A stretch of 29,710 nt of DNA from an uncultured archaeon (GTDB lineage Archaea; Iainarchaeota; Iainarchaeia; Iainarchaeales; CSSED10-239), in contig CAZCAP010000010.1 in the NCBI GenBank assembly GCA_964496765.1, positions 1-29,710 on the forward strand, in the 5' to 3' direction. This document shows, in pieces, positions 5,158 to 12,748 of the stretch. Under the pieces are notes generated by a model that was not told the origin of the DNA, made no database searches, and saw nothing but the letters and a program-made list of their open reading frames with translations. How positions within the stretch are numbered: the stretch's first letter is position 1; every line of letters starts with the position of its first letter. The position numbers and the translations under genes were made by a program.

Positions 5158-6006
5158 TCAAATTTTCAACTCTTTTTTGTTTTTTAACTTATTTGCATTT
5201 AAACGTAAATTGTTTTTATTTGTAATTACTTTTTTACCTAATTTTTGTTCAATAGTTCTTCTTGCATCTCCTGCAACATCTCCACCCTCTTTTGCAATTG
5301 ATTTGCTTTCATTAAATTCTTTTGGGTTTCTTTCTTTAGATATCTCTGTAGTAGTAACTTCACCTAACATGTTTAAAACTAGTTCTAAATTACTCATATT
5401 ATCTCTGAGATTTTCTTTTTTTAGATTTTTTAATTGCTTATATTCTGAAACTGTCATATCCGCCCATGCTTTTGTAATTTCATTAGTTAATATACCATAA
5501 TCTGATTTTTTATCTATTCCAACTCTATTCCATTCATCAGTTAGATCTTTTCTTACTTCAATTGTTTTTAATCTTTGATTAATCCATTCCTTTGAGTATC
5601 CTTTTCTTAGATAATCTCTCATTGCTCGATCTATGGTAAGCTCTGGATCATGCATCTCATTAATTCTCTCATTTCCAACTTTTGCTAGCCATAGTTTGAA
5701 TGGTTCAGCTTTCTTTGATGGAATAGATTGAATAATTCTAAATATTCCTTCTAGGTTTGCACAATCAGTTTCATAGAATTTACCATCAGATGATTCTAGT
5801 TTCAGTTGTACGATTTTATCGTACAACTTAATATTTACTTCATTTTCAGTCTTGTTTTTTAAATCAGACCAATATCTTCTTGGCTCAGAACTATCAGTTA
5901 ATGCACCAACAACATCAACAACTGAAAACCACCAATCATTATTATGCCAGATTCTTCTTATTTTTTTATCTTCAAATACAATTAATTTATTATTATTATC
6001 AGTCAT
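5158..6006 (-). CDS. Bro-N domain protein, DinD-like
   Basis: N-terminal FEDKKIRRIWHNNDWWFSVVDVVGALTDS is a Bro-N signature. The C-terminal half (EWINQRLKTIEVRKDLTDEWN...NLRDNMSNLELVLNMLGE) resembles DNA-damage-inducible protein D. Confidence 0.8.
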   Translation of the reverse strand: MTDNNNKLIVFEDKKIRRIWHNNDWWFSVVDVVGALTDSSEPRRYWSDLKNKTENEVNIKLYDKIVQLKLESSDGKFYETDCANLEGIFRIIQSIPSKKAEPFKLWLAKVGNERINEMHDPELTIDRAMRDYLRKGYSKEWINQRLKTIEVRKDLTDEWNRVGIDKKSDYGILTNEITKAWADMTVSEYKQLKNLKKENLRDNMSNLELVLNMLGEVTTTEISKERNPKEFNESKSIAKEGGDVAGDARRTIEQKLGKKVITNKNNLRLNANKLKNKKELKI

Positions 6007-6076
6007 TTAAAGTCACCATATATATTACATATTTGGTTTATATATCCCTTTCGGGAGGGTAGCTGTCCAAGCAAAA
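6007..6076 (-). repeat. Junction/leader element copy A (precedes Bro-N gene)
   Basis: Gene orientation: TTTTGCTTGGACAGCTACCCTCCCGAAAGGGATATATAAACCAAATATGTAATATATATGGTGACTTTAA-ATG. It starts directly at the stop codon of the preceding DUF1016 gene. Confidence 0.9.
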
Positions 6077-7102
6077 TTATATTTTAAATATCCTTTTTTC
6101 TATATATTCCTTGGATGGTAAATACTTCATAAGATTCTTTGGGAGAGTTGAAGTAATCTTATAGGTTGATATCCCTATTGGTTTTGTTACATCTTTTAAT
6201 GCATAGTCAACTGTTGTTCTGTTTTTATCTTTACATATAATTATACCAATGGATGGGTTCTCGTTTTCAAGCTTTACTAAATCATCAAGTGCTGATAAAT
6301 AAAACTGCATCTTACCTGCATACTCTGGTTTAAATTTACCTATTTTCAGTTCAAGAGCCATTAAACATCTTAACCTACGATGATATAAAACTAAATCTAT
6401 AAAATATTCTTCATTATCAATTTCTAAACGATATTGACTTCCAATAAAACAAAAGTATCCCCCCATTTCATTTAGAAATTCTTTTATGTTTTTAATTAAA
6501 GAATTTTCAAGTTCTTTTTCTGAATGTTCTTCACCTAATTCAAGAAAATCAAAAGTATATTCATCTTTTACAGCAAGTTTGGCTTGATCCTTGTATTTTT
6601 CTGGAATAACTTTATCAAAATTAGTTTGATTTAAAAGAAACTTTTCATAGGATTTATTTTCAATTTGATTAATTAATAGGTTTTTAGTCCATCCATATTT
6701 GGAGGTAACTCTAATATAAAATTCTTTTTCAAGATCATCTTTACATTTTTCTAAAATAACTATATTCTTCGCCCAACTAATTTCTGCAACCATTGGTTGC
6801 AGTTTTGTATTTGTTTTATATATATCATAAAATAGCTTCATATTCCATAAGTTTCTAGAGGAAAATCCCTTAATTCCTGGGAATTCATTCTGTAGATCTT
6901 TTGCTAGGTTTTCAACAACTGATTTACCCCACTTAAGTTCTTTTTGTTTTTCAACTATTCTTTTTCCAATATCCCAATAAAGATTAACTAATTCCTTATT
7001 TACTGCTTTGAGTGCAGTATATTGAGAAGTAATAATTCTTTGCTTAATATCATTCAAAAAAAGAATATATTCTTTGTTTATAATACTTTTATTATTACCC
7101 AT
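6077..7102 (-). CDS. DUF1016 (YhcG-like) PD-(D/E)xK nuclease domain protein, copy 1
   Basis: N-terminal DUF1016 helical region (LVNLYWDIGKRI...) and a C-terminal nuclease core (FDFLEL...YFIDLVLYHRRLRCLMALELKIGKF). I trimmed the start to the ATG at 7102; the 22 upstream codons in the ORF track are the translated leader element and begin at a TTG. Confidence 0.85.
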   Translation of the reverse strand: MGNNKSIINKEYILFLNDIKQRIITSQYTALKAVNKELVNLYWDIGKRIVEKQKELKWGKSVVENLAKDLQNEFPGIKGFSSRNLWNMKLFYDIYKTNTKLQPMVAEISWAKNIVILEKCKDDLEKEFYIRVTSKYGWTKNLLINQIENKSYEKFLLNQTNFDKVIPEKYKDQAKLAVKDEYTFDFLELGEEHSEKELENSLIKNIKEFLNEMGGYFCFIGSQYRLEIDNEEYFIDLVLYHRRLRCLMALELKIGKFKPEYAGKMQFYLSALDDLVKLENENPSIGIIICKDKNRTTVDYALKDVTKPIGISTYKITSTLPKNLMKYLPSKEYIEKRIFKI

Positions 7103-7174
7103 ACACAGATCACCACATATATTATAGAAATTGTGGTGTATATCCCTTTCGGGGGGGTACGTGTCCAAGCAAAA
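7103..7174 (-). repeat. Junction/leader element copy B
   Basis: TTTTGCTTGGACACGTACCCCCCCGAAAGGGATATACACCACAATTTCTATAATATATGTGGTGATCTGTGT-ATG. Confidence 0.92.
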
Positions 7175-7248
7175 TTAAATGATTAATAAAACAGAGGGAA
7201 CTATCTTTTTTTAACTATTAGGAAATTCCTAATAACTGAACTTGTTTT

Positions 7249-7272
7249 TCGCACCAATGGTGCGAGTTTTTT
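7249..7272 (+). other. GC-rich hairpin (tcgcacc-aat-ggtgcga) followed by a T6 run on the + strand
   Basis: A perfect 7-bp stem at 7249-7255/7259-7265 is followed by gtttttt. It looks like an intrinsic terminator in + orientation, yet no + strand gene lies upstream. It sits just past the stop of the minus-strand DUF1016 gene. Confidence 0.4.
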
Positions 7273-11053: not shown

Positions 11054-11077
11054 TTGATGCAAACTACAAAAAACGAA

Positions 11078-12097
11078 TTATTTTTTCTTCGTTAATATTA
11101 GTCTTTTTGTTTCTTTATCAAAATCAGATTCAAAAAGCTTATCTTGAACTAGTCTATATTTTTCAAATTCTTTTTCTGCAAAATGTTTTGCAATCTCGTT
11201 TGTTACTTTACCTGAATTATTTAAAATATCTCTATCATTAAATTTTAAAAATGCATTAAGCTTTTTTGACCAATCACTCATAGTTACTGGCACACCTCTT
11301 TTTGCTTGGTCTTCTGCATAATCAAGATACATTGTTACAATTCTATTTAATGATTCAATTTCTTTCTTATTTAAATAGTTCTTAGCAATACCAACATCAC
11401 TTTTTATTATTTTTCCATTAGGTACTTTCTTCCAAGTAGTTAAACCCATGTGTTCTTTTTCTTTATTTGCTCTAGTCATAATTAGTTCAGCAGCAGTATT
11501 TCCATGAACTGCAAAATGTAATTTATTTTGAACTACTGAGAAAAACTCTCTTGTTAATTCATCATCTTTATTATAATCAATTGAGGTGGAATAAATATCT
11601 GTTATTTTTTGATAAAAATGTCTTTCACTAGCTCTAATCTCTCTAATCTCTAATAATAAATCATCAAAATATTTTCTATTTAAGAAAGTACCATTTTTTA
11701 ATCTTTCAGAATCAAGAACGTATCCTTTTATTGCAAATTCTTTTAGAATCTTTGTAGCCCAGATTCTAAATTTAGTTGCTTTGGTTGAATTTATTCTATA
11801 TCCAACAGAGATTATTGCATCTAGATTATAAAAATTGGTATTATATCTTTTCCCGTCACTTGCAGTTATTAGGAATTTCCTAATAACTGAATCTTCGTGC
11901 AATTCATTTGAAAGGAATATGTTTTTTAGATGTTCATTGATTGTTGCAATATTAACTTCAAATAATTTTGACATCATCTTTTGACTTAACCAAATATTTT
12001 CATCTTCGAATTTCACTTCAATACCATCTTCTCCTGCTTGAGAAGTAAATATTAAAAATTCAGCTGTGCTATTTCTTATAGTTAATTTATTATCCAT
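11078..12097 (-). CDS. rhuM: RhuM-family protein
   Basis: The N-terminus MDNKLTIRNSTAEFLIFTSQAG...IEVKFEDENIWLSQKMMSKLFEV and DAIISVGYRINSTKATKFRIWATKILKE match the RhuM family. The ATG at 12097 is preceded by GGTGG (SD); the track start at 12109 is a TTG. Confidence 0.85.
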   Translation of the reverse strand: MDNKLTIRNSTAEFLIFTSQAGEDGIEVKFEDENIWLSQKMMSKLFEVNIATINEHLKNIFLSNELHEDSVIRKFLITASDGKRYNTNFYNLDAIISVGYRINSTKATKFRIWATKILKEFAIKGYVLDSERLKNGTFLNRKYFDDLLLEIREIRASERHFYQKITDIYSTSIDYNKDDELTREFFSVVQNKLHFAVHGNTAAELIMTRANKEKEHMGLTTWKKVPNGKIIKSDVGIAKNYLNKKEIESLNRIVTMYLDYAEDQAKRGVPVTMSDWSKKLNAFLKFNDRDILNNSGKVTNEIAKHFAEKEFEKYRLVQDKLFESDFDKETKRLILTKKK

Positions 12098-12171
12098 AAA
12101 ATCCACCAATCTATAAATAATATCTTAAAATCTGTATTTAAAGCTTTCCCAACCTCGTGACCAAGCATCAT
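12098..12171 (-). repeat. Junction/leader element copy F (degenerate)
   Basis: ATGATGCTTGGTCACGAGGTTGGGAAAGC...GATTGGTGGATTTT-ATG. It keeps the GCTTGG-CACG start and the SD, but the CCCTCCC arm is lost. Confidence 0.5.
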
Positions 12172-12172
12172 C

Positions 12173-12187
12173 ATAGGATTAATAATC
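12173..12187. repeat. Direct repeat ataggattaataatc (genic copy: last codons plus stop of the MBL hydrolase)
   Basis: Identical to 9361-9375. Confidence 0.8.
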
Positions 12188-12748
12188 ATGTCCTGGACAA
12201 AGAATCTTATAGTCAATTGCTTTTAATTTTTGTAAACTTTGTTTCATGCTTGATGGAACAGAAGTTGGTAGATCATATCTTCCTATATTGCCATTGAAGA
12301 AAAGAGTATCTCCAGAAAAAAGAATCTTTTCTTGTTTATCAAATATACACATCCCCCCTATTGTATGACCAGGAGTTTCAAGAATGAGAAATCTCTGAAA
12401 AGGAAGCTTGATTGATGAGATATTCTTTATCTTACAATTAAATATCTTTGATAGAGAAGAATCAAGAATACTCCCTTCTCTATTTTCTTTTAGAGCTTTT
12501 ATTTCTTTTCCTGAAGCAAAGAAATTTGCTTTAGTAAAAATATCAAAATTACCTATATGATCATAATGTAGATGAGTAAAAATAACCTGCTTTATATCTG
12601 TTGGTTGAAAGACAGAAATAGAATCAGAAAGAATCTCATCTCTGTCAACTCTATCTCCAGCATCAATTAGAGTTTGAAACTCTGATAAATAAAAGATATT
12701 AGATGAGTTTGATATTTTATAAATTCCTTCACAGATTTTTTTAAGCAT
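12179..12748 (-). CDS. MBL-fold metallo-hydrolase
   Basis: THLHYDHIGN (HxHxDH), TPGHTIGG, and the C-terminal CPGHDY. Confidence 0.8.
   Translation of the reverse strand: MLKKICEGIYKISNSSNIFYLSEFQTLIDAGDRVDRDEILSDSISVFQPTDIKQVIFTHLHYDHIGNFDIFTKANFFASGKEIKALKENREGSILDSSLSKIFNCKIKNISSIKLPFQRFLILETPGHTIGGMCIFDKQEKILFSGDTLFFNGNIGRYDLPTSVPSSMKQSLQKLKAIDYKILCPGHDY

Follow-up and report, generated by a model that had tools for sequence, protein, structure and literature searches.

The genes considered here lie in a 29,710-nucleotide stretch of contig CAZCAP010000010.1 from an uncultured archaeon of the Iainarchaeales, referred to below as the window. Within it, genes from candidate defence families stand in a same-strand array and are headed by copies of a repeat of about 70 nt, which is the subject of this analysis. 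An earlier reading of the letters alone (the sequence-only reading) had reported six copies, A to F, all on the minus strand in gene orientation, and these were recovered at the same coordinates by reading of the sequence and by a repeat finder. The repeat finder placed the copies in families D1-D4 and D10, and the 34-nt core TTGCTTGGACAGCTACCCTCCCGAAAGGGATATA gave four matches at three mismatches or fewer (0.00 expected from 100 dinucleotide shuffles). One of these four was new and lay on the plus strand (19591-19624); it belongs to a seventh copy, G, whose neighbours are a small winged helix-turn-helix (wHTH) gene (19232-19567) and tRNA-Asn. The profile search proposed in the sequence-only reading was built from all copies, the plus-strand one included, and run with nhmmer: copies A-E and G scored between E = 2e-14 and 3e-11, and copy F reached only E = 1.6. 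Copy F nonetheless retains TGCTTGGTCACG and its own B recognition element (BRE) and TATA sequence, and the same variant was found upstream of a RhuM orthologue in a related locus (L010). The box at the 5' end of the repeat was absent from the upstream regions of about 27 other window genes, housekeeping promoters included, and a further 16 kb of flanking sequence from this genome contained no more copies.

The cargo was identified with Pfam and PADLOC (Table 1), and there is one gene, or gene pair, in each unit, as had been described before. The families listed in the sequence-only reading were supported by Pfam for the Bro-N gene, the two DUF1016 genes, the ORF6N fusion and RhuM, and Pfam likewise assigned the gene behind copy G to ORF6N, whereas the proposed AbiEi/AbiEii pair was weak (AbiEii Pfam E = 0.0066, below the cut-off; PADLOC 9e-4). 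The families DUF1016/YhcG, RhuM, ORF6N and Bro-N/DinD occur widely and count as 'defence candidates', with no function assigned to them. PADLOC agreed with this placement of the cargo, assigning it to PDC-S13, PDC-S02 and PDC-S05, which are untested phage-defence candidates (PDC) defined in bioRxiv 10.1101/2024.01.29.577857; NCBIfam gave no names for the cargo. A foreign composition of the island was considered and rejected, as its GC content of 22-30% matches that of the flanks.

Table 1. Repeat copies, cargo genes and remnants in the window
Feature	Position	Strand	Evidence and remarks
17-codon remnant of the C-terminus of a 279-aa gene	5050..5100	-	between Bro-N and disA; tblastn E 2e-6, 12/17 identical
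Bro-N/DinD-like gene	5158..6006	-	Bro-N 5e-12; PADLOC PDC-S13 5e-126
Copy A	6007..6076	-	heads Bro-N/DinD-like gene; box, C-run, BRE/TATA and leader; 0 mismatches; E 2.1e-14
DUF1016/YhcG PD-(D/E)xK nuclease a	6077..7102	-	Pfam; PADLOC PDC-S02; L011 orthologue 91% identical
Copy B	7103..7174	-	heads DUF1016a; core match and nhmmer; 93% identical to copy C
DUF1016/YhcG nuclease b	7271..8335	-	Pfam; PADLOC PDC-S02
Copy C	8336..8407	-	heads DUF1016b; core match and nhmmer
ORF6N + HATPase_c_4 + helix-turn-helix (HTH) fusion	8418..9284	-	PDC-S05-like N-terminus; L008 orthologue 83% identical, adjoins radA
Copy D	9285..9358	-	heads ORF6N-HATPase_c_4-HTH fusion; nhmmer E 3e-11
Duplicate of 3' end of metallo-beta-lactamase (MBL) gene (GATTATTAATCCTAT)	9361..9375	-	upstream of copy D; original at 12173-12187
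HTH protein and weak AbiEii-like pair	9513..10851	-	own BRE/TATA promoter, not element-driven
13-codon remnant open reading frame (MSKLIIITSKKMFN*) behind copy E	10937..10981	-	sequence reading
Copy E core	11013..11052	-	orphan promoter; nhmmer E 3.4e-12
RhuM-family gene	11078..12097	-	Pfam 5e-109; PADLOC PDC-S05
Copy F	12098..12171	-	divergent RhuM promoter TGCTTGGTCACGAG...GGAAAGCTTTAAATA; box retained, C-run lost
Copy G	19589..19656	+	heads ORF6N gene 19657-20553; E 5e-14; outside the originally described range
ORF6N protein with conserved C-terminal domain	19657..20553	+	GTG start at 19657; PDC-S05 7e-121; orthologues in L001, L002, L003

The layout of the element was read from column counts over 25 distinct aligned copies from the window and its relatives. 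In gene orientation it consists of a box (TGCTTGGMCA), a spacer of 4-6 nt, a C-run (CCCYCCC), a BRE-like CGAAARG and a TATA-like GATATAYA (GATATATA). In the box TGCTTGG is (nearly) invariant and is followed by one variable A/C and an invariant CA; at the variable position, position 8, five of the seven window copies have A, and most other genomes have C. The spacer also varies in sequence (GCTA, CGTA, GGTA, AGCA and others), and the C-run is followed by GAAA, RRG, an invariant ATATA and then Y and A. On the 3' side of the TATA-like motif come an AT-rich stretch, TAATATAT, the predicted start site, and then either GGTGA and ATG or ATG alone. Each of the 25 strong copies lies between genes and points in the direction of the next open reading frame (ORF), with box, C-run, CGAAA and GATATA in fixed register, and the sequence at the boundary of the units is (A/T)TTT/TGCTTGG in all copies.

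Two classes of start codon were seen. In the first, ATG lies 25-30 nt past the G of GATATA (L005, L007, L012), as does the start of the radA leader in L004. The second class (window copies A-D and G) has GGTGA at about +29 and ATG at +39 to +45 after GATATA. From general knowledge of archaeal BRE/TATA promoters, both classes would fit a single transcription start located some 27-30 nt past the G of GATATA. The mRNAs of the first class would be leaderless and those of the second would begin at a Shine-Dalgarno sequence; given the predicted start, TAATATAT would be the AT-rich promoter-proximal region and TGGTGA the ribosome-binding site. The anatomy strongly suggests that the repeat functions as a complete archaeal promoter with its leader. 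The sequence-only reading had described a conserved junction between cassettes; its sequence conservation stands, but the element appears to be the promoter of the downstream gene, has no conserved hairpin and does not look like a recombination site lying between cassettes.

The GC-rich core of the window copies could form a CCC-GAAA-GGG tetraloop hairpin. Over the 25 copies, however, this stem was paired in 69% of cells (31% unpaired) compared with 68% in shuffles, there were no compensatory changes, and G-to-A drift in the run facing the C-run is uncompensated. As single-strand DNA the copies folded no better than shuffles (z-scores -1.4 to +1.4). Rfam returned only tRNA-Asn at the gathering threshold and, at E<=1, one chance-level match (Yfr10, E 0.82) away from the elements. 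Because covariation, folding above shuffle level and an Rfam match are all missing, the GC core is best regarded as a sequence motif and not a hairpin, and the hairpin or attC reading was rejected. No GTTRRRY core was found at the boundaries, where a lone GTT (copy D, GTTGCTT) breaks the RRR rule; pairing, folding and boundary reading therefore bear out the earlier statement that neither an attC-like palindrome nor this core is present. A perfect dyad, TGCTTGGCCAAGCA, as a dimer site was also rejected, since symmetry in most copies is limited to TGG/CCA and the outer T/A and is partial at best. Around the copies there were no terminal inverted repeats or target-site duplications, and the copy flanks are unrelated to one another. 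Two short perfect hairpins, TATTAGGAA/TTCCTAATA and GCACC-ATT-GGTGC, do occur at 7216-7282, just past the DUF1016b stop and within the unusually long spacer before copy B; the Yfr10 match lies here.

The exact element also precedes radA (Rad51 Pfam 3.9e-91), in three contigs (L004, L008, L013), and the source annotation of the homologues of L004 RadA is Iainarchaeia/Diapherotrites. The radA upstream regions of nine further lineages were then compared. Of the ten Iainarchaeia radA loci examined, eight (RadA 74-100% identical to that of L004) kept the box, with the pattern GGMCA..TACCC..AAA, and four of these eight have no cassette nearby. In L030, L027-29, L031, L035 and L037-39 the DNA ahead of radA has diverged forms of box, C-run and GAAA. 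As the intergenic DNA around these boxes cannot be aligned between lineages, the radA box is phylogenetically footprinted. No cassette is found upstream of radA in L031, L035 and L037-39, and in L031 and L037-39 radA comes directly after a divergent PPDK gene. The conservation of the box at cassette-free radA genes argues that it is ancestral to the radA promoter and not the scar of a cassette insertion. In L035 the nearest TATA-like sequence is about 25 nt away from box, C-run and GAAA, a distance that speaks for the box being a unit separate from the core promoter. The sequence-only reading had suggested that the element would be just a local consensus promoter if it were found upstream of ordinary housekeeping genes; radA does carry it, but the roughly 27 other window genes do not, and it is therefore not the generic promoter of the region.

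The radA leader, of about 130 nt, has a feature of its own (L004:1800-1917, L013, L030, L034:9900-10000, L037, L039). It contains a conserved block, TTGTGAG(G/A)CGAGAAACACAAGAAATAAAACG, with a hairpin before it (e.g. GAAGTTAACCTAACTTC). The block is kept even in L034, where the box is absent, has no Rfam match and is a candidate cis-regulatory RNA in the radA 5' untranslated region.

Scanning 185,579 species genomes with the exact pattern gave one locus, L001 ('MAG: archaeon isolate ELA007'), where three copies within 2.1 kb head ORF6N, Bro-N and an unassigned unit, in this order. The same pattern gave 13 contigs in metagenomes and no loci in IMG/VR, where a looser pattern returned four GC-rich chance matches; a viral origin was rejected, as there was no real IMG/VR match. 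The genes behind the copies include Bro-N, ORF6N (in several architectures), KilA-N, DUF1016, RhuM and an unknown protein of 276-279 aa. One copy is followed by DUF1016 and then RadC, and others by an N6/N4 methylase with a MORC-like ATPase, by a truncated DinD-like ORF, or by a 105-aa ORF and then a Hef-like helicase and an ERCC4 nuclease; the helicase, the ERCC4 nuclease, RadC and the DinD-like ORF are repair-type genes lying behind or beside copies. Solitary copies were found at window position 19589 and in L005, L006, L007 and L012. As would be expected of a shared operator, the same motif stands in fixed register to the core promoter ahead of several unlinked genes.

Some of these loci have further features near the element. 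At L006:7831-7851 there is a degenerate box on the opposite strand, TCCTTGGCCAGGAACCCCC (E 0.24). It precedes a divergent PD-(D/E)XK (PDDEXK_1) nuclease gene and stands back to back with the strong copy heading DUF1016-RadC. A restriction-modification-like cluster (L012:771-5618, and L014) begins with a D12 methylase and a small PD-(D/E)XK protein and continues with the element-headed N6/N4 methylase, a 209-aa ORF and a MORC/MzaB-like ATPase, with Schlafen/AlbA_2 proteins on the flanks. At L002:5505-7768 and L030:299-2560, a 130-aa ORF, a bAvd-like protein and a reverse transcriptase (RT) are directly upstream of element-headed cassettes; this bAvd/RT module resembles a diversity-generating retroelement and in L030 lies two genes upstream of radA.

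Comparison between related loci showed that the units differ at the same site. In two contigs from the same sample, L004 and L008, the sequence is identical over a segment that starts 6 nt ahead of the box and runs through radA; upstream of it they are unrelated, one having a 386-aa gene and the other the ORF6N fusion. In L010 and L011 the element and the 279-aa gene are common and the upstream genes differ. Since the same gene and element are found behind different neighbours in both pairs, the element belongs to the downstream gene. The disA-adjacent site is syntenic in the window, L011 and L007 (DisA 87-88% identical) and holds six units in the window, DUF1016a (91% identical) and the 279-aa gene in L011, and the 276-aa gene in L007. 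Immediately upstream of radA there is nothing (L031, L039), ORF6N (L027), Bro-N and ORF6N (L029), bAvd-RT and DUF1016 (L030) or the ORF6N fusion (L008), which makes four contexts with cassettes at this position. In L027 a 35-nt direct repeat, the same on both sides and with the box in it, flanks the inserted ORF6N unit. The sequence-only reading had raised the possibility that cargo differs between related genomes at the same locus, and both cargo and order do so between the window and L011, L007, L010 and L008, the disA-adjacent site differing between relatives at species level.

In the window, positions 3388-4902 hold disA (DAC and DisA-linker) and a cold-shock-domain gene, and the array is co-oriented with them and directly upstream. 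The arrays of relatives are likewise upstream of, and co-oriented with, radA. The two hot spots for arrays, at disA and at radA, therefore both adjoin DNA-integrity genes.

Elements within the window resemble each other far more than do the proteins behind them: the B and C elements share 93% identity and their proteins 32%, and for D (ORF6N fusion) and B the figures are 82% and 18%. The reverse was seen between genomes, element B being 79% identical to the element of its orthologue in L011, with proteins at 91%. Judged from these identities and from box position 8, the copies have been homogenised within a genome (concerted evolution).

The array also carries scars. The position of the 17-codon remnant is occupied in L011 and L007 by a gene of the 279-aa type. 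The leader of copy E matches that of the second cassette of L009, in which the gene is intact (MDKLIII...), and alignment showed that the flanks of copies D and F have GATTATTAATCCTAT-N5-TGCTTGG in common. The irregular spacing of copies D and E noted in the sequence-only reading is thus real and can now be explained, E being an orphan promoter with a gene remnant and the gap at D holding the MBL duplicate. Remnants and duplicate show that the edges of the units are imprecise, which is not what precise cassette excision would leave. Pfam domains of integrases, transposases or recombinases were found neither in the window, as had been stated before, nor in 10 kb of left flank, 6 kb past the right end or about 40 related loci.

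Strain-level contigs were found through exact-protein look-ups of the flanking GNAT, TFB and MBL genes. Every contig with these exact proteins, drawn from at least six samples, had the array in the same order and at 99.9-100% identity. Independent assemblies of the same clonal population (L020, L021, L018, L042, L043) end inside the array or at copy G. These breaks are consistent with assembly collapse at repeats of about 70 nt, and such arrays are therefore probably under-represented in metagenome-assembled genomes (MAGs).

Three other features of the window were noted. Inside the ORF6N fusion, at 8583-8635, the 12-nt tandem repeat TTTTCTCCGAAC occurs three times and encodes SEKSSEKSSEK between the HATPase_c_4 and HTH parts. 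A two-gene pair at 14549-15110 (86 aa, with a weak DUF2683 match, and 71 aa) lies behind repeated TTGTTAACAA/TTAACAATTGTTAACAA palindromes that look like an autoregulated operator of toxin-antitoxin type. Overlapping HEPN and nucleotidyltransferase (MNT-type) genes at 16363-17332 are found amid housekeeping genes and have no element.

The explanation that we favour, with a probability of roughly 0.6, is that the repeat is a radA-type promoter/operator module that has come to serve defence-candidate genes as well, recombination between its copies being a by-product. Box and C-run would form a cis-regulatory site peculiar to this lineage and ancestrally part of the radA promoter of Iainarchaeia (DPANN), and copies of this promoter would have come to head Bro-N/DinD-like, ORF6N, KilA-N, DUF1016 and RhuM genes and the methylase/MORC-like pair. 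Through a putative box-binding factor, responding to a stimulus that we presume they have in common, the cassette genes may be co-expressed with radA; co-regulation is suggested because the box is footprinted and the gene set is coherent (a recombinase, nucleases, a DinD-like gene, and ORF6N/KilA-N DNA-binding proteins). At the same time the copies, near-identical over 40-70 bp, would provide portable homology. Through recombination and gene conversion among them, with occasional illegitimate joins, units of promoter and gene could then be inserted, deleted and reordered, resulting in same-strand arrays adjoining disA in the window and directly upstream of radA in relatives. This role of the repeats in building arrays is proposed because of the comparative data, and the homogenisation, the scars, the lack of a recombinase in the loci searched and the fixed array favour recombination or gene conversion over a precise site-specific machinery. 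On this view the cassette genes are probably turned on along with DNA repair and rearranged as copies of the promoter recombine.

Several points weigh against this explanation. Start site, promoter activity and co-regulation are predictions from sequence. The box is absent at two of the ten radA loci (L034 and the GC-rich L036), the Bro-N cassette of L029 has no box, and the window genome's own radA was not recovered, the closest RadA clusters coming from other samples. No candidate regulator was found; the wHTH gene next to copy G was considered as a dedicated regulator and rejected, since it is not conserved beside the other copies. About 46 kb of the window's genome was scanned in all, and the public scans needed an exact degenerate pattern including the C-run and GATATA, so that the catalogue is skewed to close variants and divergent copies are under-sampled. 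Strain-level presence/absence polymorphism was not seen in the contigs with exact flanking proteins, many of which break at repeats, and recombination is not frequent on population time scales. The sharp 5' edge of homology at the box would be expected from homologous recombination, but a site-specific crossover at TGCTTGG would look alike.

One rival, which is possible though clearly less probable than the favoured explanation, is plain promoter reuse without a dedicated regulator, in which a strong constitutive radA-type core promoter was copied along with duplicated or transferred genes and box and C-run are an extended TFB/TBP-context element. Similar promoters before non-homologous genes have been described already (PMC3575422), every core promoter part is inside the element, and CGAAA-type BRE-like purine runs also precede TATA in other window promoters, such as those of RhuM and the HTH gene. 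It is less easily reconciled with L035, where the box is conserved independently of the core promoter, with the RhuM promoter, which keeps the box and not the C-run, or with the window's housekeeping promoters, none of which has the box. A functionally coherent set of genes (DNA repair, nucleases, DNA binding) would also be unexpected under neutral copying.

Another, rather doubtful, possibility is that the box is both a promoter element and the attachment site of a cassette-capture platform without an integrase. Promoter-bearing units of one gene each would leave as circles and be re-inserted at any copy of the box, preferentially at the radA promoter, by RadA or an unrecognised recombinase. 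If this were true, both the acquisition and the expression of defence-candidate genes would be tied to the recombination and repair state of the cell.

We consider an integron-like system unlikely, in which the element would be a site of attC/attI type and single-gene cassettes would be excised and inserted there by a dedicated recombinase whose gene lies elsewhere. The array had been called formally integron-cassette-like, and this holds for its co-oriented units and variable content but not for integrase, attC palindrome or GTTRRRY core. An integron would fit with one-gene units that lie on one strand and have a conserved junction, with cassette sets that differ between relatives at one site, and with an invariant 7-bp TGCTTGG where homology between contexts starts or stops; the direct repeat around the ORF6N unit of L027 resembles a Campbell-type insertion. 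However, the search for recombinase domains in the window, its flanks and about 40 related loci was negative, as was that for attC architecture, and the element contains BRE and TATA sequences, travels with the downstream gene and is conserved at radA in cassette-free genomes. In addition, the edges of the array are imprecise (truncated genes, duplicated flank) and the array is fixed in the population.

A non-autonomous mobile element like a miniature inverted-repeat transposable element, carrying an outward promoter and inserting upstream of genes, is very improbable. Many near-identical copies with sharp 5' edges are present in several genomes and resemble one another more closely inside one genome than do copies at orthologous positions, as such an element would predict, but terminal inverted repeats and target-site duplications are absent around every copy, the 3' edge shifts because the leader differs from gene to gene, orientation and register to the start codon are uniform, no transposase is nearby, and the position at radA is orthologous across lineages. 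Least plausible of all is a structured RNA or DNA, whether a terminator of the upstream gene, a 5'-UTR riboswitch or a small RNA, for which the possible tetraloop and the T-run often seen before the box can be cited, against the covariation, folding and Rfam results and a core that lies upstream of the predicted start site.

Among known systems, integrons, including those reported in archaeal MAGs, are similar in their co-oriented single-gene units, conserved repeat, variable content and accessory or defence-type cargo. They differ in having an integrase, an attC hairpin with its GTTRRRY core and precise edges; their cassettes are mostly promoterless, whereas here the repeat is the predicted promoter of the downstream gene, and the same box also heads the housekeeping gene radA.

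Putative mobile promoters, or promoter reuse, have been described in prokaryotes as near-identical promoters before non-homologous genes (PMC3575422). The present copies are likewise near-identical within and between genomes, evolve independently of the genes that they head, and are far more similar than those non-homologous genes. Here, in contrast, the donor can be named (radA), there is a conserved upstream box, tandem arrays and insertion hot spots occur, and the host is archaeal (DPANN).

In E. coli, recA and the Bro-N gene dinD are SOS genes under LexA and the SOS box. In Sulfolobus, radA is not known as a prominent member of the damage regulon. The Orc1-2/TFB3 DNA-damage response of Sulfolobales uses a hexanucleotide promoter motif (PMC6061795, PMC5817253). 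The similarity with both regulons lies in a short conserved motif, overlapping the core promoter or close upstream of it, that is common to recombinase or repair genes and accessory genes, with a DinD-like Bro-N gene in the set, and, as in a regulon, the motif is conserved at an orthologous gene (radA) where the flanking intergenic DNA has diverged. The box sequence is unrelated to either motif, however, and the copies here would also be recombination substrates.

PDC genes are found in type I restriction-modification, BREX and DISARM loci (PADLOC; bioRxiv 10.1101/2024.01.29.577857), and the cargo families here are the same; in the window they are not embedded in a restriction-modification operon but strung together, each behind a radA-type promoter. 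An Orc1-binding site, or origin recognition box (ORB), was also considered. The archaeal ORB consensus, GTTCCAGTGGAAAC-AAA----GGGGG (PMC1868953), shares with the element a short dyad followed by a homopolymer G/C string. The ORB reading was rejected, as consensus, half-sites and string polarity do not fit: the dyad differs (TTGGCCAA-like compared with TTCCA-TGGAA), the string has a different polarity, and the copies are gene-co-oriented and promoter-proximal, not placed around an AT-rich unwinding element, with no orc1/cdc6 nearby.

In the best-supported reading, the closest concept would be promoter reuse (PMC3575422) combined with a damage-type regulon like SOS or the Sulfolobus Orc1-2 response. 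If this is correct, the footprinted radA box, being common to nuclease and DNA-binding genes, would be a candidate operator with which its regulator could be found. To our knowledge, neither promoter reuse nor a damage-type regulon has been described in this lineage, and we know of no DNA-damage or stress regulon in DPANN archaea. The radA-promoter wiring and the stacking of units at radA and disA would suggest that these defence-candidate families act in, or are triggered together with, recombination and DNA-integrity surveillance. A promoter that doubles as portable homology could then assemble cassette-like arrays without an integron.

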